A stretch of DNA of 64,000 nucleotides from an uncultured Actinomycetes bacterium (GTDB lineage Bacteria > Actinomycetota > Thermoleophilia > Solirubrobacterales > Solirubrobacteraceae). Every line of letters begins with the position of its first letter. Positions within the stretch are counted from its first letter, which is position 1. The DNA lies in contig CAVUND010000018.1 in the NCBI GenBank assembly GCA_963742745.1, forward strand, positions 3,481 through 67,480, in the 5' to 3' direction. The notes beneath the pieces were generated by a model. It saw only the letters and a program-made list of their open reading frames with translations. It ran no database searches and was not told the DNA's origin. Below are positions 41,152-52,941 of the stretch, piece by piece. Both the position numbers and the translations under genes were made by a program.

Positions 41152-41610
41152 CTACGGCTTCTGTTCGCGCATGCCCTTCACCGCCGCCGAGATGACCTCG
41201 GCGTCGAGCACGTCGGCCATGACGCCGATCTGTTCCTCCCAGACGTCGTCGTCGATCTGGCTGCGGAACTCTTCCTCGAGTACGTGATACACGGAGAGAC
41301 CCAACTGGGTCTCGGCCAATGCACCTGCATAGGTCGGATCGCCGAGCACAAGGGTCTCGGCGGCGATCTCCGCGCTCTCGTCGTCCGGAGCTCCGAGGAT
41401 GACGAGCAATTGCTCGGCCCCGTGCTCGTCGGCAAGGCGCTTGATCACTTCCTGGCTATTGAGGTCCATGGCCCCTGAGGCCGTTCAGACGAAGCACTCC
41501 GTCGACGTGTACTCGACCTTGCCGCCGGCGCTCTTCACGCAGGCCGCGATCGCGGGGCCCGCGACGCCGTCTCGCTCGCCGAGCACGATCACCATCTTGT
41601 TGTCGAACAT
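41152..41610 (-). CDS. grdA: Glycine/sarcosine/betaine reductase complex selenoprotein A, with in-frame TGA (Sec) at 41485-41487
   Basis: Translation from ATG 41610: MFDNKMVIVLGERDGVAGPAIAACVKSAGGKVEYTSTECFV-TGA-TASGAMDLNSQEVIKRLADEHGAEQLLVILGAPD ... GDPTYAGALAETQLGLSVYHVLE. This carries the canonical CxxU motif and GrdA-like sequence on both sides of the TGA. The track shows only the C-terminal 105 aa. Confidence 0.9.
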
Positions 41611-41616
41611 CGGGTG

Positions 41617-41958
41617 CTAACTCACCTCCTCTGTGTTCTCGTCGAGGCTCTTGTCAAGCCAGTCATTGAGCTGCGCGGGGCTGATCGTCGACTCCGACAA
41701 CCGCGCCACCTCTTCGCCGTCGCGCAGCAGCAGGAACGTGGGAAGCCCGTGGACCTTGAGGCGGATGCACACCCGCCGCGCCTTCGGCGCCTCGAGCATG
41801 ACGACGTTGATGTCGTCGCGTGCCTCGGCCAGCTTCTCGACGTGCGGCTTGAGCGCCAGGCACGGCCGGCAATCCGGTCCCCATACGTCGACGAGCGTGG
41901 TGCCGCTCTCGACGAGCTCGTCGAAGTTCTCGCGTGTCGCCTCGGCTACAGCACCCAT
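41617..41958 (-). CDS. Thioredoxin-fold protein with an atypical DCRPC redox motif
   Basis: Translation: MGAVAEATRENFDELVESGTTLVDVWGPDCRPCLALKPHVEKLA ... GLPTFLLLRDGEEV. It lies 5 nt after grdC and 6 nt before grdA. Confidence 0.85.
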   Translation of the reverse strand: MGAVAEATRENFDELVESGTTLVDVWGPDCRPCLALKPHVEKLAEARDDINVVMLEAPKARRVCIRLKVHGLPTFLLLRDGEEVARLSESTISPAQLNDWLDKSLDENTEEVS

Positions 41959-41963
41959 TTCGC

Positions 41964-43397
41964 TCACCCTTCCGCTTCGTTGGACTCGAGCAGCACGCTC
42001 ATGCCGTCGGACTGCTCGGACATGCGTCCCAGGAACAGACTGCCCTTTGCGATCAGCTGTACCCGATGTGCGCTCCCATCCATCAACCGGGCACGTGCAT
42101 GCGGGACGTAGCATAGGGCCGAGGCGATGTGACCCTGGGTCGGGGCGTAGCCGGGCATGCCCCGCTGCGCGACGAAGTCGCCCATGTCCTCGCGGCCGAT
42201 CTCGCCGCGGCGCAGCGCCAGAGCGGCGAGCGTCTTGTAGTTGCGCGCCGGGACGTCGCCCGAGCCCTGCGGCTCGGTGATCTCGGGGTTGTGCAGCTCG
42301 GTGGCGTAGTCGTCGACGTCGAGCGATCCCAGGCCGAGGCGCTCGAGGGGCGAGAACGCCAGGGCCTCCATGATCTTCGGGTTCGAGGACCCGGCGGCGA
42401 CGGTGTGGCGGCCGACGGAGTCCAGCCGCACGCGCGGCGAGCGTCCGTCGTCGGCCTCGACGAGCACGGCGCTCGCGCCGAGGACGTCCTCCAGCACCGG
42501 CAGATCGTGCTTGAGGTGCCCTTGGAACTTCATGCCCACCTTCGGAAGCGAGCCGCCCGCGACGACGACGACGCGCCCGAACACCCCGGAAGCGACGAGG
42601 CTGCTGGCGATGACCAGCGCGGGGATCGGGGCGGCACAGAAGTTCTTGACGTCGCAGCCCGAGGCGTTGCTGCAGCCCGCCGCCGCCGCCACGGACTTTG
42701 CGAGGTTGCCGCCGCCGCGCTGGTAGCGGTCGCCGATCGCCTCCTCGCCGGCGCCGATGACGTAGTCGATCGAGTCGGGGTCGATGTCGTTGTCGGCGAG
42801 CAGGCGCAGGAGGCCCAGCGTGGCGCTCGCCTTTCCGCAGAGGTTCTCGAAGAACACGTCGGCGGTCAGGGCGGCATCGCTCTCGTGGGCGCGCCGCACG
42901 GCCGCGGCGAGCTGATCGGCGCCGAGGTGCAGCTTCAGCGCGCCCGGCTCGGCCGCCACCGCTTCTGCGTCGCCGGCCGCGGCCGCCACCTTCTCGAGGT
43001 CGAGACGCTCGGCCAGCGGATGGCTCTGCAGCTTCTCCGCGATCGCGCCGGCGTGTGCCGCGTCGAGCCGCACGAGGCCGAAGTCGTCGACCGCCGCCAG
43101 CAGGCCGAGGAACTCGTCCTCGGGCATGAGCTCGCCGACGCCCGCGAAGCGGCCCTCGCCGTTGGCGGCCGCGCCGACCCACGGTCGCTCCGGCAGGTCC
43201 CGCGGATGGATCGCCCCGAGGTAGGCCTGATGCGGCGCGTAGGCGACCGCCTGCTCGAACGTGCGCAGCGAGCTCAGGAACTGCGCCTCGACGTCCGGGT
43301 TCTTGTGCAGCTCGCGCGACGGCTTGGAGCCGTGGCGGCACAGGCCGGGCACATGGACGAGCGCCGCGCTCGTGGCGCTGATGACAGGGACGGGCAT
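41964..43397 (-). CDS. grdC: Glycine reductase complex protein C, beta subunit-like (GrdC)
   Basis: Translation from ATG 43397: MPVPVISATSAALVHVPGLCRHGSKPS ... LRTFEQAVAYAPHQAYLG ... FAGVGELMPEDEFLGLL ... QRGGGNLAKSVAAAAGCSNASGCDVKNFCAAP ... VVVAGGSLPKVGM ... LEDVLGASAVLVE ... GMPGYAPTQGHI ... KGSLFLGRMS. This is colinear with clostridial GrdC as I recall it. Confidence 0.85.
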   Translation of the reverse strand: MPVPVISATSAALVHVPGLCRHGSKPSRELHKNPDVEAQFLSSLRTFEQAVAYAPHQAYLGAIHPRDLPERPWVGAAANGEGRFAGVGELMPEDEFLGLLAAVDDFGLVRLDAAHAGAIAEKLQSHPLAERLDLEKVAAAAGDAEAVAAEPGALKLHLGADQLAAAVRRAHESDAALTADVFFENLCGKASATLGLLRLLADNDIDPDSIDYVIGAGEEAIGDRYQRGGGNLAKSVAAAAGCSNASGCDVKNFCAAPIPALVIASSLVASGVFGRVVVVAGGSLPKVGMKFQGHLKHDLPVLEDVLGASAVLVEADDGRSPRVRLDSVGRHTVAAGSSNPKIMEALAFSPLERLGLGSLDVDDYATELHNPEITEPQGSGDVPARNYKTLAALALRRGEIGREDMGDFVAQRGMPGYAPTQGHIASALCYVPHARARLMDGSAHRVQLIAKGSLFLGRMSEQSDGMSVLLESNEAEG

Positions 43398-43404
43398 GCG
43401 CCCT

Positions 43405-44703
43405 CTATTGAACCGGATCGCCGTCGAAGACCGTCGGCTCGCTGACCTGCGTGCCGACGGCGACGAGCGCCCGTTCAAGCAGTTGCCGGCGCCAGGCGTG
43501 CTCCGCCGCGGGCCCGAGCTCGGGATCTCCCGCCGGGAACGGGATGCCGCGCGTGGGCACGATGCGCGGCGCGCCGACGCGCTTGGCGATCGAGACGAGG
43601 TTGCACAGCAGCGCGGTGGGGATCCCGGCGCGCTCCAGTTCCTTCGTGAGCGTTGACCCGCAACGCGTGCCGGTTCCTCAGGTGGCGGTGAGAATGACCG
43701 CCTGGATGTTCGCCTGGCGCAGCTCGGCCGCCCATTCCATCCCGAAGCGGCGCGCGTCGGCGACCGTCGTGCCGTTGCCGGTCGTCCCCAGGTACTCGCC
43801 GTGCAGGCGTCCGATCGCGCCCTCGCGCTCCATCTCGCGGGCGACGTCAAGCGGCAGGATGCGGTTGGGATCGGCGTTGGCCCAGACGGTGGAGAACCCG
43901 CCGTGCACGGACTCGAACTCGCCCTCTTCGACGGAGTCCAGGCCGTCGAGCGAGTGGCGCACCCACTTCGTGGCGCGCGCGGACTCCAGGCGGTCGGGGT
44001 TGCCGGCGGGCACGAAGCCGCCCTCGGTGACGAGCGCGAACAGCGCGTCGGTGACGTCGGCGACGGGCGCGGCCGGCGTGACGCTGTCGAAGTCGGGGAG
44101 CGGGATCTCGGTGGCGTCCTTGTCGCCGGCCAGGCGGGTCAGCACGAGCGCGACGGCGCGCTCGGCCGCGCTGTGTTCGGCCATGCGGTTGGTGCGGGCG
44201 ACCGGGCCGATGCGCCCGTCCTGCGCGGTGAGCTCGTCGCCTGCGGCGATGATTCGTGCTGCCGCGGCGAAGCGCTCGAGCGACTCCTTCATCTTTCGCG
44301 CCGTCTGGCCGCTCTCGACGACGGCCGTGCCGGCGGCCTCGCCCAGGCCGGGATTCTCGGGGTGCATCGACGCCAGCGCGGGCAACCCCGCCTCGCTGGC
44401 CGCCGCCGCGATCCGCGCGCACGCCATCCCGTAGCGCCCGCTCGTGAACGAGGGGCCGGCGATGATCATCTCGGCGCCGCGCTCCCTGGCCTGCGTGACG
44501 AGCTCGGCGGCGAAGTCGGCGTGCGAGGCCGCGTAGTCGTCGCCGCAGATGGCGGTGGCGACGATCTCGTGCTCGTCGCCGAGCAGCGAAGCCAGCTTGC
44601 GGCCGGGCCCGACGGCCCCGTCGCGCAGCTCGGGACCGGTGCCCGCGGAGTCCTCGCCGCCCATGCCGGCGAAGAACTGGTTGACGTAGTGGACGATCTT
44701 CAT
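43405..44703 (-). CDS. grdB: Selenoprotein B (GrdB/GrdF/GrdH family) with in-frame TGA (Sec) at 43678-43680
   Basis: Translation: [34 protein letters not shown] ... IIAGPSFTSGRYGMAC ... LVTEGGFVPAGNPDRLES ... VHGGFS ... LPLDVAREMEREGAIG ... GTTGNGTTVA ... AVILTAT-TGA-GTGTRCGSTLTKELERAGIPTALLCNLVSIAKRVGAPRIVP ... and stop TAG at 43405-43407. The track ORF ends at the TGA. Confidence 0.9.
43650..43666 (-). other. Candidate SECIS stem-loop of the grdB-like gene
   Basis: On the mRNA, UGA is followed by 11 nt, then GCGUUG-CGGGU-CAACGC (6-bp stem, 5-nt loop containing GGU). Confidence 0.4.
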
Positions 44704-46019
44704 GACGCGATCTCGGCCTCGGCACAGGTGAGTCTGCCCCAGCCCAGCGTGCTCTGCGCGCAGTAGACGGCGGCCACCGGCAGCTCGACCTCGTTGGTGG
44801 ACGCCTGGTCGAGCAGGGCGATCTTGTCACGGCCGAGCGCGCGGTCCACGGCGGGCAGCGTCATCCGCTCGTCGTAGTTGCCCGTGCTGACGAGCGCGGT
44901 CGCCTTCGTCGGCGGGACCACGAGCGGCGGCCCGGTCCCGTCGCGCCCCGCCATCTCGGCGAGGATGCCGATCGCCGCGATCCCCTCCTCCTCGAGGCGG
45001 TCCATCTTCAGCGAGACGTCGGCGTCGGCGTTGCCGCCGCCCTCCTTCGTCGCGATCGCGGCATCGAGGTGCAGTTGCTTGCACAGCCGCGCGGCGTGGG
45101 CGGAGACGAGCTCCTTGTCGGCCTGGTTGACGGGCTCGGGGCAGAGGATGAGCGCCGCCAGCTCGAGCTCGTCCGAGCGGGCGCGCAGGGCCGCGACCAC
45201 CGGATGGGTCTGGTGCAGATAGGTGGGGTTCTTCAGCGCGGGATGGCCGAACTGGCCGCTGACCACCGCGCCGTCGTCGAGCTCGCTGGGCGAGATGACG
45301 GTCGGCAGGCCACCCGACAGGCTGCGCCCGTAGACGAAGACGTCCTTGAACTTGCCCTGCGTCTGCAGGTTGAGGATGACGCCGACCCGCGGCTTGCCGT
45401 TGGCGGGTGCTTCTCCGGGCTCGGAGAGCTCTTCGACCGCGTCGGGCTCGGCGTCGAGCGCGGCCTCGGCGAGGTGGGCGGCGACCGTGACGAGCCCGCG
45501 CCGCAGCGCCGCGTCGACGTCGCCCCAGTCCGCGTCCTCGGCGGGCGTCCACTCGACGACGAGGTTATGCGTCGCGGCGAGCGGCGACAGCGGCGCCGCC
45601 GGCCCCGACATGTCGATGACCGCCTCCTGCGCGCGGGGCAGGTAGCCGGCGGCCAGCACGGCGGCGCCGCGCAGGACGTGCGTCTCACCGCGCCCCACGG
45701 GCATCGCCGGGCCGAGCAGCCCGGGGAACACGCCGCCCCCGCCGGGGCCTTTCGAGCAGGGCTGGACGGCGTCCAGCACGCCGACGATCCGCACGGAGTC
45801 GCCGGGCGAGGCGACGCCCAGCCGGACCTCGGCGAACGCGGGGTCGCGCAGGAGGTCGAGCACGGTCTCCTCGCCGACGGTGAGGCGCCCGTCGGAATAG
45901 CCCGTGCTCTCGCCGAGATCGAGCTCGCGCACCTCGTGGATCACCCGGGTCAGCCCGGTCTGCGCGTTCACGTTCTGAATGCTGCCAGATGTCGGCCAGG
46001 CGGGGTGATCCCCGGCCAC
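44700..46019 (-). CDS. GrdE/GrdI-family substrate-binding component B subunit (no proprotein-cleavage cysteine seen)
   Basis: Motifs: [18 protein letters not shown] ... VIDMSGPAA ... [22 protein letters not shown] ... [13 protein letters not shown] ... [16 protein letters not shown] overlap with the grdB start. The start codon is uncertain, with in-frame GTG alternatives downstream of 46019. Confidence 0.8.
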
Positions 46020-46122: not shown

Positions 46123-48231
<2,109 letters not shown>

Positions 48232-48319
48232 CCGCGCCGACGCGACGGCGGGCGGTGAGCGCGCCGGCGCCGGCGCCGGCGCTCGCGGGCCGGCGTGAGC
48301 CAGCCCTTACGCTTACGCC

Positions 48320-49353
48320 GTGAGCGATTCGCAGGCAGCGGCACCCGTCCCGCTGACGTCCCTCGCCCACGGCGCGGGCTGCGGCTGCAAGCTGCCGGCG
48401 GCGTCCCTGCTGCCGATCGTCCGTGGCCTGCCGGCCGTCGCCGACCCGCGGCTGCTCGTGGGCTCCAACACCGCCGACGACGCCGCGGTGTTCAAGTTGA
48501 CCGACGAGATCGCGCTCGTGATGACGATCGACTTCTTCACGCCGATCGTCGACGACCCCTACGACTTCGGGCGGATCGCGGCGGCGAACGCGCTGTCGGA
48601 CGTCTACGCGATGGGCGGGGTGCCGTTGGCGGCGATGAACGTCGTGGCGTTTCCGCTCGAGCGGCTCGGCGGCGACGTGCTGCGCGAGATCCTGCGCGGT
48701 GGCGCGGACATCGCCACCGAGGCCGGCATCGCCGTCGTCGGCGGGCACTCGATCGACGATGCCGAGCCGAAGTACGGGATGTCGGTCACCGGCACGGTGC
48801 ATCCCGACGAGCTCATCTCCAACGCCGGCGCGTGCGTGGGTGACGTGCTGGTCCTCACCAAGCCGCTCGGCGTCGGCGCGATCACGACGTCTCGCAAGCG
48901 CGGCAACCGCGACGACGAGCTCTTGGCGCGCGGCGTGGCGACGATGACCGCGCTCAACGACACGGCCTCCGCCGCGGCGCGCGCGGCCGGCGCCCACGCG
49001 ATGACCGACGTCACCGGCTTCGGGCTGCTCGGCCACCTGCACTCGCTCGGGCGCGCGAGCGCCGTCGCCGCGGAGATCGACGCGGCGTCCGTGCCGGCGA
49101 TCGACGGCGTGCTCGCGCTGCTCGAGGGCGACGACGCCGTCTCGGGCGGCAGCCGCCGCAACCGCGAGTACGCCGAGACGTTCACGGTCTTCGCGACGCC
49201 GATGTCGCGGAGGCGCGGCGGCGGCTGGTCTGCGACGCCACGACGTCCGGCGGGCTGCTCGTCGCGGTCGCGCCCGAAGCCGCCGCGTCGCTGCCGGGCC
49301 CGATCATCGGCGCGATCGTCGCCGGCGAGCCCGGCGCCATCGCGGTGCGATGA
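48320..49353 (+). CDS. selD: Selenide, water dikinase (Cys form), with an apparent one-base deletion near 49190-49198
   Basis: Motifs: LTSLAHGAGCGCKLP ... DDAAVF ... TIDFFTPIVDDPYDFGRIAAANALSDVYAMGG ... VVGGHSIDD ... MTDVTGFGLLGH ... GGSRRNREYAETF. The sequence then continues in the next frame as DADVAEARRRLVCDATTSGGLLVAVAPEAA ... IAVR, with a stop at 49351-49353. Length is 1034 nt, which is 3n-1. Confidence 0.88.
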
Positions 49354-49379
49354 TCGCCGTGCACGGGCACCACCTGCCT

Positions 49380-49470
49380 GGAGCGGCCCGGGCCCGGTGG
49401 CCCATCCGGTCTTCAAAACCGGCGGGGCGCGGCACACCGCGCTGGAAGGTTCGACTCCTTCGCCGTTCCG
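49380..49470 (+). tRNA. selC: tRNA-Sec (anticodon TCA)
   Basis: Structure read from the sequence: 8-bp acceptor GGAGCGGC/GCCGTTCC with one G-U pair; D stem GGGCC/GGCCC with a 4-nt loop; anticodon stem CCGGT/ACCGG with loop CT-TCA-AA; long variable arm GCGCGG-CACA-CCGCGC; T arm GAAGG-TTCGACT-CCTTC; discriminator G. No CCA is encoded. Confidence 0.93.
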
Positions 49471-49471
49471 T

Positions 49472-50779
49472 ATGAGCGACCACGACCGGCTGCGCGCGCT
49501 TCCCTCCGTCGACAAGCTGGCGACGATGGTCGCCCGCGCCGAGCTGCAGGCGCGGCGGGCGGATCTGCTCGACGGCGGCGCCGCGGCGGCCGACGACGAA
49601 CAGGTCGACCTCGTCGCCCGGGCACGGGCCCGCCTCAGACCGCACCTGCGGCGCGTGCTCAACGCGACGGGCGTCGTCGTCCACACGAACCTCGGCCGCG
49701 CCCCGCTCGCCGTCGAGGCGCAGGCCGCGGTGGCGGCGGTCGCCGGCGGCTACAGCAACCTCGAGCTCGACCTCGCCAGCGGCGAGCGCGGCTCGCGTCA
49801 TGCCCACGTCGAGGAGCTCCTGAAAGAGCTCACCGGCGCGGAGGCGGCGATGGCGGTCAACAACTGCGCCGCGGCGGTGCTGCTGGCCTGCGCCGCGCTC
49901 GCCGCAGGCCGCGACACCGTCGTCTCGCGCGGGCAGCTGATCGAGATCGGCGGCGGCTTCCGCATCCCCGAGGTGCTCGCCGCCGCCGGCACGCGGCTCG
50001 TCGAGGTGGGCACGACGAACCGCACCCGCCGCGCCGACTACGAGAGGGCGCTCGCTGCCGGAGGCGAGAGCGTCGGCGCGATCCTGCGGGCACATCCCTC
50101 CAACTTCCGCACGCTGGGCTTCGTCGAGGAGGTCGAGATCGAGGCGCTCTGCGAGCTCGGCGTGCCCATCATCGACGACGTCGGCTCGGGCGTGCTGACC
50201 GAGGACCTCGAGTTGCTCGCCGGCGAGCCGCCGGTGCGCCGGTCGGTCCGCGCCGGCGCGGCGCTCACGGCGTTCTCGGGCGACAAGCTGCTCGGCGGCC
50301 CGCAGGCGGGGCTGCTCGTCGGCACGCGCGCCGCGATCGAGGCCTGCCGCCGCCATCCGCTCGCGCGGGCCGTGCGGATCGACAAGCTCTCGCTCGCCGC
50401 GCTCGAGGCGACGCTCGCCCTGCATCGCGACCCGGCGGCGGCGCGGCGCGCGTTGCCGGTGCTCGCGATGCTCGAGGCCGACGCCGGGACGCTGACCCGG
50501 CGCGCGGAGGAGCTGGCCACCGCGACCGGCGGCACGCTCGTCGCTTCGACCGCGCGCGTCGGCGGCGGCGCGCTGCCGCTGCTCGAGCTGCCGGGGCCGG
50601 CGGTCGCGATCGACCCCGGCCCCGCCGGCGCCGACGCGCTCGCCGCAGCCCTGCGGGCCGGCGATCCCGCCGTCGTGGGCCGCATTCACGACGGCCGCCT
50701 CCTGCTCGACCCGCGCACGCTGACCGACAACGAGGCGCGTGAGGTGGCGCGCGCGGTGCGCGCCGTCCTCGCGCCGTGA
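49472..50779 (+). CDS. selA: L-seryl-tRNA(Sec) selenium transferase
   Basis: Motifs: [17 protein letters not shown] ... [20 protein letters not shown] ... [16 protein letters not shown] ... [10 protein letters not shown] ... [19 protein letters not shown] ... [14 protein letters not shown] (PLP lysine) ... [14 protein letters not shown]. Confidence 0.92.
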
Positions 50780-52290
50780 GCGAGGAGCACGCGGCGGCCC
50801 TGACGCTCGGGACCGCCGGCCACATCGACCACGGCAAGACCGCGCTCGTGCGCGCGCTCACCGGCGTGGACACCGATCGCCTGCCCCAGGAGCAGGCGCG
50901 CGGTATGTCGATCGAGCTCGGGTTCGCGCCGTTGCTGCTGCCCGGGGGCCGGCGCGTCTCGGTCGTCGACGTGCCGGGCCACGAGCGCTTCGTACGCACG
51001 ATGGTGGCCGGGGCGACCGGGATCGACTTCCACCTCATGGTCGTCGCCGCCGACGACGGCGTGATGCCGCAGACCCTCGAGCACGCGGAGGTGCTCGCGG
51101 CGCTGGGGATCGATCAGGGCGTCGTCGCGATCACGAAGTGCGACCGCGCGTCCCCCGAGCGCGCCGCCGCGGAGGCCGCCGAGCTGTTTGCCGATGCCGA
51201 GATCGTGGCGTGCTCGGCGCGCACCGGCCACGGCGTGGCGGACGTCGCGGCGGCGCTGGAGCGCGCCGCGGCGCGGGTCACGTCGCAGGCCGAGCGCCAC
51301 CGCGACGGCCCGGCCGTGCTGCACATCGACCGCGCGTTCACGATCCACGGGGCCGGCACGGTCGTCACCGGGACGCTGTGGTCCGGCAGCCTGGCGGTGG
51401 GCGACACGCCGACCCTGCTGCCCGCGCAGCGGCCCGTCCGCGTCCGGTCGCTGCAGGTGCACGACGAGCCGGCCGAGCGGGCGCACGCGGGCCAGCGCGT
51501 GGCCGTCAACCTCGCCGGGATCGCGCGGCGCGACGTCGCTCGCGGCGACGCGCTCGCCGACCCGATGGCGGGGGTCGTGCCGACGCAGGTCGTCGACGCG
51601 GTGCTCGACCTGCGCGGCGAGCTGCGCGCCCGGCGGGTCATGGCCCACCACGGCACGCGAGCGGTGCCGGCGCGGCTGGTGGCGCTCGGCGACGCCCTGT
51701 GGCAGCTGCGCCTGGAGGCGCCGCTGCTCGCCGCCGCGGGCGATCGGCTCGTCGTGCGCTCGGTCGCGCCGCCCGACACGCTCGGCGGCGGCACTGTGAT
51801 CGATCCGGGCGCCCGCCGCCACGGTCGCCGCCCGGACGTGGTGGCGCGCCTGCAGCGGCTGCGGCGCGGTGAACCGGAGCCGGAGCCCGCTGCCGACGCT
51901 GCCCGCGCGGCGCCGGCGGCGGCCCCGCCGGGCCCCCCGCTGGAACCCGAGGCGATCGAGCTCGCCGGGCGGCTGCTCGCGGCCGGCCACGAGCCGCCCT
52001 CGCGCGCGGACCTGGGCGCCGCGGCAGCGCACCTGCCCAAGCTCGTCCAGGCGGGCCTCGCCGTGCGCATCGGCCGCGACCTCTACGCGCACCGCGACGC
52101 CATCGCGGCCGTCAAGGATCGCGTCGGCGCGATCATCGCCGACGAGGACGCGATCACGCTCGCGCGGCTGCGCGACGAGCTCGGCACATCGCGCAAGTAC
52201 GCCGAGGCGCTGCTCGAGCACCTCGACCAGGCACGCTTCACCAAGCGCCTGCCCGACGACCGGCGAGTGCTGCGCCGCCGCGCGGGCTGA
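50776..52290 (+). CDS. selB: Selenocysteine-specific translation elongation factor
   Basis: GTG is in a GTGA overlap with the selA stop. Motifs: [14 protein letters not shown] ... DVPGHERF ... AITKCD. C-terminal winged-helix region: [25 protein letters not shown]. Confidence 0.92.
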
Positions 52291-52360
52291 GCTCGCAATC
52301 CCGGGCGGGACCTCGCACGTAGTACGTGTGACGGCATCGTTGCGCTCGAGGGCGTCGACC

Positions 52361-52941
52361 ATGAAGCTTCGCGTGGCTGTTGGTGCGTGTCTCGCCTTCG
52401 CGGTATTCGCCGGCGCATTGCCGGCGGCTGCGGCGTCGCGTCCCAGGCAACCCGACAAGACGGCGCCGACGGTGCCGACGAACCTGCGGATCACTGCGGC
52501 GACCGAGGACTCGATGAGCGTCGCGTGGACTGCGTCGACGGACAACTCGGGCGCCATCCACCACTACGTGACCTGCTACTCGGGCTGGTTGATCCCGTCC
52601 CCCGGCTACTGCATCTGGGGCTCGCCCGTACCGCCCGCGAAGACCGTCACCGGTCTGGTGCCGGGCAAGGAGTTCGCCTTCCGCGTCAAGGCCGTCGACG
52701 CGGCCGGCAACGAGTCGGCGCTGAGCAGCCCGGTGACCGGGAGCACCGCGGCGGACGTGACGGCGCCGACGGCGCCTCCGGGTTTCGAGAGCCGCGTGCT
52801 CGACGCGCTGGTGCCGGCTCCTCCCCTGCCCCCCGCCGCCGCCGGCGGCTGGTCGCGGCGCTCGCCGCCACCGCTGTGCTGGAACGAGCCGGCGGCCGGT
52901 ACCTCTCCCCCGCGGAGCTGCGCGCGCAGCTGCGGCGCTGA
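52361..52941 (+). CDS. Secreted fibronectin type III domain protein; 3' end uncertain
   Basis: Signal: MKLRVAVGACLAFAVFAGALPAAAA. FN3-like region: PTNLRITAATEDSMSVAWTASTDNSGAIHHY ... LVPGKEFAFRVKAVDAAGNES. After about 52790 the frame becomes Pro/Arg-rich and would run 170 nt into the next gene. Another frame stops at 52941. Confidence 0.55.

Follow-up and report, generated by a model that had tools for sequence, protein, structure and literature searches.

How is a coding sequence translated when its start codon lies a single nucleotide (nt) behind the end of a tRNA gene and no Shine-Dalgarno sequence precedes it? The question is raised by the selenocysteine (Sec) locus of an uncultured bacterium of the family Solirubrobacteraceae (Actinomycetota), situated in a 64,000-nt stretch of contig CAVUND010000018.1 (assembly GCA_963742745.1) that was analysed as a whole and is referred to below as the window. 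Here selA, the gene for selenocysteine synthase, follows directly on selC, the gene for tRNA-Sec. An earlier reading of this DNA from its letters alone (the sequence-only reading) had proposed that 3' maturation of the tRNA creates a leaderless selA mRNA. Our analysis adds an element that this reading had overlooked, a 41-codon open reading frame (ORF) that holds the whole tRNA gene and overlaps both the end of selD and the beginning of selA. The mechanism that we favour, and to which we would give an even chance, is a relay in which ribosomes pass from selD through this bridge ORF to selA, with maturation of the tRNA as an alternative fate. The elements concerned are these:

48320..49353, + strand: selD (selenophosphate synthetase, Cys type GAGCGCK), frameshifted in the window
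49350..49475, + strand: bridge ORF of 41 codons, holding the whole tRNA-Sec and the spacer (ORF list, relatives)
49354..49379, + strand: spacer between selD and selC, or tRNA 5' leader, 26 nt, variable in sequence among relatives
49380..49470, + strand: tRNA-Sec (selC) with UCA anticodon, 8/5 fold and discriminator G49470, CCA-less (ARAGORN, Rfam, fold)
49471..49471, + strand: lone spacer base U, candidate determinant for an RNase Z-type 3' cut (pyrimidine in 127 of 127 related contexts)
49472..50779, + strand: selA (selenocysteine synthase), ATG start without Shine-Dalgarno sequence, codon 2 (AGC) making the TGA of the bridge ORF (Pfam, structure match, relatives)
50776..52290, + strand: selB (Sec-specific elongation factor), its GTG overlapping the selA stop (GTGA 50776-50779)

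The junction of tRNA-Sec and selA

The sole tRNA that ARAGORN finds in the window is a tRNA-SeC with the anticodon tca/UCA, which the Rfam family RF01852 matches over its full length (model positions 1-91) with 66.7 bits, against a gathering score of 47, and an E value of 1.8e-12. At its minimum energy of -50.5 kcal/mol it folds into an 8/5 cloverleaf of the bacterial type, in which the acceptor stem has 8 pairs, the T stem 5 and the long variable arm 7. The tRNA begins with GGAG and ends on the discriminator G49470, followed by T49471 and the selA ATG at 49472-49474, and no CCA is encoded, just as the sequence-only reading had described the junction. That reading was also right in seeing no Shine-Dalgarno sequence for selA: in the 20 nt before the ATG, including the 3' half of the tRNA, the best duplex with the tail of the 16S rRNA reaches only +0.4 kcal/mol. 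A pairing of the precursor's leader with its trailer (49354-49362 with 49470-49479), which would cover the selA AUG and prolong the acceptor stem, was no better than in shuffled sequences (z -0.4), and the leader is not conserved. Structure prediction for the 5' end of a processed selA RNA likewise gave nothing beyond shuffles.

The product of selA is matched by Pfam PF03841 with 392 bits (cut-off 22.8) and by the SelA of Aquifex (3W1H) with an E value of 5.4e-94, query residues 19-432 aligning with chain residues 29-449; its closest relatives, from soil metagenome-assembled genomes, are 85-87% identical. As judged from the sequences compared, the ATG one base after tRNA-Sec is the selA start. 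A start elsewhere, be it at GTG 49397 in the D-loop of the tRNA, at Met19 or by way of a SelD'-linker-SelA fusion (ORF 48320..50779, 819 amino acids), is highly improbable. It would draw on the absence of stops in the selA frame upstream, across the tRNA, and in the window on the continuity of this frame with the frameshifted selD. Yet the selD frameshift is not found in 17 relatives, three relatives (L004, L087 and L180; relatives' loci carry L numbers) have no in-frame start inside the tRNA, and Met19, the only other in-frame selA start within 50 codons, is Ala in L001, L003, L007 and L009, which moreover have no further in-frame ATG, GTG or TTG within 50 codons downstream of the selA start. 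The unsuitability of the next in-frame Met, already asserted by the sequence-only reading, is thereby borne out. The motif LPSVD(R/K)L begins 6-13 codons past the selA start in relatives with or without an upstream tRNA, and the alignment of this N-terminal region sets in at about residue 10, where it does in other SelA proteins too. Given the Ala at Met19 and the relatives devoid of alternative starts, ATG 49472 is taken as the real start.

Two relatives show other forms of the upstream region. In L150 (reverse-complement strand, 1-90 nt after the discriminator) the selA ATG still lies 1 nt past the tRNA, and about 25 extra codons precede the conserved N-terminus, giving an extended SelA (MSAKHGQDRPEGG...). 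L002 (1250-1376) encodes a SelA 87% identical to that of the window without an upstream tRNA; the piece upstream resembles internal selD (AVFKLTDKIA) and may stem from a rearrangement or misassembly.

To survey the junction more widely, metagenome contigs were scanned for the tRNA 3' end GGTTCGACTCCTTCGCCGYTCCG irrespective of what follows, which together with the genome loci gave 127 distinct tRNA-Sec contexts. The one-base spacer, always T-ATG, is invariant in 18 distinct Solirubrobacteraceae-like sequences whose SelA proteins are 75-89% identical to that of the window and differ in their N-termini (MSDRD, MTDEAIHARV, MTEQTSP, MSGRN, MSDESIRARA). As the junction is identical in these 18 sequences from genomes and metagenomes, it is not a matter of chance. 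In other lineages selA follows after 3 nt (CTC), 4 nt (TGAG) or 7-54 nt, or tRNA-Sec is followed by selB at 4 nt (TCCC) or 8-100 nt, and good Shine-Dalgarno pairing (-5 to -9 kcal/mol) is confined to some of the long spacers. The sequence-only reading had named conservation of the selC-selA spacing as a check, and the answer is divided: the single base is kept in the 18 close sequences, whereas distant relatives have 3-100 nt.

Further arrangements of selA were seen in the survey. In many other Solirubrobacterales (L010, L015, L019-L022, L025, L027-L029, L032, L034, L036) the gene that directly adjoins selA upstream, in many cases overlapping it, has a C-terminus resembling that of MoaE (...EIIDEIKARVPIWKREEGEW), and no tRNA is nearby. 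Coriobacteriia-like loci have selC about 2 kb downstream, past selB. In L092, L104, L105, L111 and L118 a conserved spacer, TCAGTCAGCGAGAATCTCGCG (21-24 nt after tRNA-Sec), precedes a selA ATG (MANN...) without NTGA or bridge frame; this clade seems to start selA by another means.

The bridge ORF

The ATG of the bridge ORF overlaps the selD stop (cgATGAtc), and its TGA overlaps the selA ATG (tATGAgc, ATGA 49472-49475). Counting the bridge ORF, every cistron junction of selD-selC-selA-selB is a 4-nt overlap of stop and start, which is the usual signature of translational coupling. The claim that selA can be translated only as a leaderless RNA, made without regard to this ORF, is weakened by it. 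The tRNA itself has no stop triplet in any of its frames. Since an open frame alone is unsurprising, features that would not be expected by chance were examined, among them rare codons, the A bases at the overlaps and the phase between selD and the downstream gene.

An ATG on the selD stop requires that the last selD codon end in A (CGA), and in sampled genes of the window A makes up 1.8% of third positions and CGA 4 of 145 Arg codons. The same ATGA at the selD stop recurs in loci where selB follows the tRNA (L114, L153, L164, L174, L185). At the other end, an A follows the downstream start codon, forming NTGA, in 50 of 61 distinct starts, compared with 4 of 17 other leaderless-type starts in the window; where codon 2 encodes Ser it is AGC or AGT in 29 of 29 cases, and AGC accounts for only 14 of 56 Ser codons in gene bodies. 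As to phase, 17 of the 18 members of the one-base clade with an upstream selD have a start codon on the selD stop (ATG 13, GTG 3, TGATG 1) in the frame that ends on the selA ATGA. Their selD-tRNA spacers measure 26, 23, 10, 19 or 68 nt and their tRNAs 91 or 92 nt, and spacer and tRNA together have a length divisible by three in every case. Only L087 departs from this pattern: its spacer is 12 nt long, and its frame, started by GTGA, ends 8 nt inside selA.

Beyond this clade the pattern is looser. With the selD stop positioned by homology, the distance from it to the downstream start, modulo 3, is 1 in 24, 0 in 12 and 2 in 7 of 43 distinct arrangements. A census of 55 arrangements found 21 complete relays, 16 partial ones and 18 without any, and the complete ones include downstream spacers of 40, 52 and 97 nt. 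Two loci are instructive individually. In L113 a divergent gene replaces the upstream selD, and a TAGGGT box stands 8 nt before an ATG that lies 15 nt before the tRNA in the same frame, which looks, from its sequence, like a leaderless version of the bridge ORF. In L119 (10904-10945) a 20-nt tandem duplication of TATGACCGATGAC... just past tRNA-Sec has shifted selA 20 nt downstream; from the former start there now runs a 7-codon ORF (MTDDGAV), with a TGA that overlaps the ATG of the shifted selA.

On the mechanism that we favour, the operon would probably be transcribed from a leaderless-type promoter at selD. Ribosomes ending selD at UGA 49351-53 would restart on the overlapping AUG 49350, translate the 41 codons of the bridge ORF through unfolded tRNA-Sec sequence, end at UGA 49473-75 and begin anew on selA AUG 49472, which overlaps it; from selA they would go on to selB via GUGA. 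Such a relay would supply selA with ribosomes without a Shine-Dalgarno sequence and at any spacer length. The bridge ORF also explains the relatives that have spacers of 10-100 nt and no Shine-Dalgarno sequence, which the leaderless idea cannot. From the anatomy of the locus and its conservation, both observed directly, we infer co-transcription, the restarts of translation, the processing sites and the competition between fates that is taken up below.

Several points weigh against this mechanism. Restart at AUGA without a Shine-Dalgarno sequence and the passage of ribosomes through a tRNA fold of -50 kcal/mol are both assumed. With 73% G+C long open frames are likely by chance, and with a tRNA that is free of stops the openness of the frame tells little by itself. 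The sequences are related, and the counts overstate the number of independent events; the phase bias is modest when distinct lengths are counted, with 16 of 31 in the favoured class, and 18 of the 55 arrangements have no relay. A clade with a selD TAG 9 nt before the tRNA keeps another phase and has no start on the selD stop; its candidate starts lie inside the selD 3' end. The exact one-base spacer is left unexplained by the relay alone, though an invariant spacer would be expected once the frame is constrained, because only stop-free insertions in multiples of three are then allowed. The selD frameshift of the window, if real, would take ribosomes across the tRNA in the frame of selA, so that the relay is bypassed.

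This frameshift is a 2-nt insertion near 49193-49202 without counterpart in 17 relatives, which could reflect either a mistake in sequencing or a mutation of recent date. The 50 conserved residues at the C-terminus of selD lie in the +1 frame, which runs to TGA 49351-49353, and the original frame is open past the insertion through the tRNA into selA, giving the 819-amino-acid ORF 48320..50779. The sequence-only reading had placed a selD stop 26 nt upstream of the tRNA, and the TGA is indeed there, with the caveat that selD read from its own start misses it because of the insertion.

The conservation at both ends of the bridge ORF also bears on a plainer explanation, by which no special mechanism is at work: selA would be translated at a low level by ribosomes that initiate inside the precursor independently of a Shine-Dalgarno sequence, perhaps while the tRNA is still unfolded or else by way of the distant GGAG, and the spacing would reflect genome compaction. 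Many leadered actinobacterial genes lack a Shine-Dalgarno sequence, and the GGAG with which tRNA-Sec begins could act as a distant Shine-Dalgarno sequence, as has been suggested for mycobacteria. There selC lies 11-75 nt before selAB and is co-transcribed with it, some species have no Shine-Dalgarno sequence, and transcript levels are low (PMC13449736). Still, a folded tRNA that ends 2 nt before the AUG leaves the 30S subunit no single-stranded landing site, the GGAG lies 91 nt upstream in the chain, and neither the selected A bases at both overlaps nor the conserved phase is accounted for. We consider this explanation unlikely.

Possible excision of the tRNA and the proposed fates of the transcript

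In the 127 contexts the base after the discriminator is T 105 times, C 22 times and never a purine; 126 of them have a U at one of the two positions after the discriminator, against a background of 13% T downstream, and none encodes CCA. A few other tRNAs in the relatives' loci show the same 3' context. In Bacillus subtilis the action of RNase Z on CCA-less precursors is stimulated about 200-fold by a U that stands no more than 2 nt from the discriminator (PMC10100781). An RNase Z-type cut after G49470 fits the window, since CCA is absent and U49471 follows.

A leaderless selA RNA could otherwise be a primary transcript. An internal promoter that would yield it was considered and rejected: the 3' half of the tRNA holds no TANNNT, not even a TA dinucleotide in 49440-49470, and a scan of 47800-52800 for promoter-like and terminator-like sites, sigma-70 sites included, gave none. 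In the absence of a -10 box there, leaderless selA RNA could arise only by processing. Across the window TANNNT is depleted (62 sites on both strands versus about 127 in shuffled sequences), and 17 sites lie 5-10 nt before the start of a long ORF with high G+C at third codon positions, which is the usual geometry of leaderless genes. The one before selD and further examples are:

48308..48313, + strand: -10-like box TACGCT, 6 nt before the selD GTG 48320, one of the 17 start-proximal TANNNT boxes
16395, 23513, 32566, 39201 and 56336, + strand: examples of start-proximal TANNNT boxes
54604, 39146, 35284 and 9488, - strand: examples of start-proximal TANNNT boxes

The geometry of TACGCT before selD suggests a leaderless primary transcript for the operon. 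Read in the same way, the boxes suggest that a quarter to a third of the genes of the window are leaderless, and leaderless translation is probably routine in the source organism.

These observations nourish the strongest alternative to the relay, in which excision of the tRNA by RNase P and an RNase Z-type enzyme is the main route, the 5'-P-(U)AUG product serves as a leaderless selA-selB mRNA and the bridge ORF is incidental. The cut by RNase Z creates a 5' phosphate, and leaderless translation in Escherichia coli requires a 5' phosphate. selA has no Shine-Dalgarno sequence and its AUG lies 1 nt past the predicted cut, as would be looked for in an mRNA made leaderless by processing. The one-base spacer is invariant in 18 sequences, and independent lineages have spacers of 3 nt (CTC) or 4 nt (TGAG, and TCCC before selB), all with ATG. 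The missing CCA and the U within 2 nt in 126 of 127 contexts match the RNase Z determinant (PMC10100781), the tRNA contains no -10 box, and ribosomes of an organism with 17 genes of leaderless-promoter geometry should handle 5'-terminal starts. Streptomyces coelicolor possesses tRNase Z, and CCA is missing from 53 of its 65 tRNA genes (PMC4681348).

Against this stands that excision accounts only for spacers of at most 4 nt, whereas relatives with 10-100 nt and no Shine-Dalgarno sequence carry the signatures of the bridge ORF; it leaves unexplained why an ATG that needs a rare codon is conserved on the selD stop and why an A follows the downstream start. In Caulobacter a one-base leader costs about half of leaderless translation (PMC8459731). 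In Streptomyces processing cuts have been mapped a few nt downstream of CCA-less tRNAs (PMC4681348), and a cut of this kind would here remove the selA AUG. Mukai predicted repression of such a processed leaderless RNA (PMC8124441). No description of a bacterial mRNA made leaderless by tRNA 3' processing was found in the literature searched, which yielded only mitochondrial work, Mukai's hypothesis and the MazF model, which according to a review has not been reproducible by other laboratories (PMC9031893). Excision as the main route is possible, but doubtful. Of the original proposal that tRNA 3' processing makes selA leaderless, the part that concerns the cut has gained from the missing CCA, U49471 and the lack of an internal -10 box, and the part that left no room for another route has been weakened by the bridge ORF 49350..49475.

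The relay that we favour leaves room for excision as well. Where folding of the tRNA comes first, RNase P together with an RNase Z-type enzyme that takes U49471 as its guide would release tRNA-Sec, and the leftover selAB RNA, beginning (U)AUG, could be translated as a leaderless message along the route proposed by the sequence-only reading. Making the tRNA and translating across it would compete on each transcript. In its fullest form, which we put forward tentatively from the sequences and hold to be less likely than the relay as such, each transcript would have two fates: a relay that yields SelA and SelB and keeps the tRNA unfolded, or excision at U+1 that yields tRNA-Sec and a leaderless-translatable (U)AUG-selAB. 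The balance of the two would set the ratio of tRNA-Sec to enzyme, and many soil Actinomycetota would have conserved the design, whether before selA or before selB. The idea that selA expression is coupled stoichiometrically to tRNA-Sec production was overstated, as co-transcription gives 1:1 synthesis and not a 1:1 steady state.

The sequencing runs found to hold related sequence were all soil metagenomes or metatranscriptomes, with at most 24% of the words. Assembled contigs of the metatranscriptomes include some that span the selD 3' end, the tRNA and selA at a depth of 2-4, where DNA carry-over is possible, and others with the tRNA only at a depth of 20-85; contigs carry no information on RNA ends. 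Together they are weakly indicative, being compatible with co-transcription and a stable tRNA and showing nothing more. One contig of depth 23, in run X34, begins at 49361, 19 nt before the tRNA, and GATGAT at 49348-53 has the A2 and T6 of a -10 box. This may point to a second selC promoter inside the end of selD, or to a break in the assembly graph.

The products of the operon have potential clients nearby:

41152..41610, - strand: grdA selenoprotein gene, in-frame TGA (Sec) at 41485-41487, motif CFV-U-TASGAMD
43405..44703, - strand: grdB selenoprotein gene, in-frame TGA (Sec) at 43678-43680, motif ILTAT-U-GTGTRCG

From their motifs, each with the in-frame TGA at the known Sec position, we take these to encode GrdA and GrdB, the selenoproteins A and B of glycine/sarcosine/betaine reductase. 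With two selenoprotein genes on the other strand, the Sec machinery has clients 4-8 kb away. Neighbouring genes, also named from motifs, are a thioredoxin-like gene with CRPC (about 41617-41960), a GrdC-like ORF (41964-43400) and a GrdE-like ORF (44700-46019); a grd cluster is unexpected in the genome of a soil Solirubrobacteraceae bacterium.

Only in E. coli is it understood in detail how tRNA-Sec is balanced against SelA and SelB. The SelA decamer binds ten tRNAs, and an excess of SelB sequesters Sec-tRNA (PMC8124441). The locus described here offers a simple and testable design, one RNA being both tRNA precursor and translated message, and the start and the stop of the bridge ORF can each be altered, or a bridge-frame stop be set into the spacer, without touching the tRNA or the SelA protein. 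If the relay is true, tRNA genes inside translated frames occur beyond the Alphaproteobacteria and ribosome traffic can gate tRNA maturation; if excision is the route, a bacterial mRNA is made leaderless by removal of a tRNA; and if both fates are realised, the locus would join a bacterial version of tRNA punctuation to translational coupling. For annotation the consequence is that gene callers will either overlook the 41-codon ORF or let selA reach into the tRNA.

Relation to known systems

The closest bacterial precedent comes from Alphaproteobacteria, in which a whole tRNA-Sec is nested in the selB ORF, the stop codon overlaps the next start and the frame is conserved; translation through the tRNA and its processing were presented as alternatives, in a proposal that was bioinformatic (Mukai 2021, PMC8124441). 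Here, too, a sense-strand tRNA-Sec lies wholly inside an ORF (49350..49475), the stop of this ORF overlaps the next start, the reading frame is kept across the tRNA, and two fates are proposed of which processing leaves a leaderless downstream RNA, on a bioinformatic basis in both cases. Frame conservation is not universal here, with 17 of 18 in the one-base clade, 24 of 43 overall and 18 of 55 arrangements without a relay. In contrast to the alphaproteobacterial system, the host of the tRNA is a free-standing bridge of 41 codons and not a C-terminal extension of SelB, and it stands between selD and selA (selB in relatives) and overlaps both neighbours. The tRNA is CCA-less, the lineage comprises Solirubrobacterales and other Actinomycetota, and the downstream genes are those of the Sec machinery. 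A free-standing bridge ORF that holds tRNA-Sec between selD and selA or selB was not found described in the literature searched.

In its spacing the locus resembles the selCAB of a termite-gut symbiont, whose tRNA-Sec has its last base at position -2 relative to the selA start (a remark in PMC8124441, citing Mukai 2016). That system belongs to another lineage, has no upstream selD and is known from this one remark, without an analysis of conservation, processing signals or a bridging frame.

A further case is that of the mycobacteria, where co-transcription of selC and selAB has been demonstrated by paired-end RNA-seq and the tRNA has been proposed to regulate selAB (Behra et al. 2026, PMC13449736). 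Like our organism they are Actinomycetota with selC directly upstream of selA-selB on the same strand, and some of them also lack a Shine-Dalgarno sequence. Their spacers, however, measure 11-75 nt versus 1 nt here, and their tRNA genes encode the CCA that is missing here; their selD lies on the opposite strand, which makes a relay impossible, whereas here it shares the strand, and the report describes no ORF through the tRNA (PMC13449736).

For excision the closest analogue is the tRNA punctuation of mitochondria, in which tRNAs abut coding sequences on a polycistronic precursor. There, as Ojala, Montoya and Attardi reportedly found in 1981, the mRNAs freed by RNase P and RNase Z have at most 3 nt before their AUG. 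That system is organellar and excision has been established as the route to translation, whereas in our locus excision is a prediction that competes with a ribosome relay.

In E. coli, selAB is autoregulated by an element in its 5' untranslated region that resembles a Sec insertion sequence (SECIS-like; summarised in PMC13449736). There as here a Sec-linked structured RNA immediately precedes the start of selA and might control how far it is translated. The E. coli element, unlike ours, is a SelB-bound hairpin beside a normal Shine-Dalgarno sequence, with selC elsewhere in the genome. Set beside these systems, the arrangement in these Actinomycetota, with a CCA-less tRNA inside a bridge ORF that stands free between selD and either selA or selB, is new.

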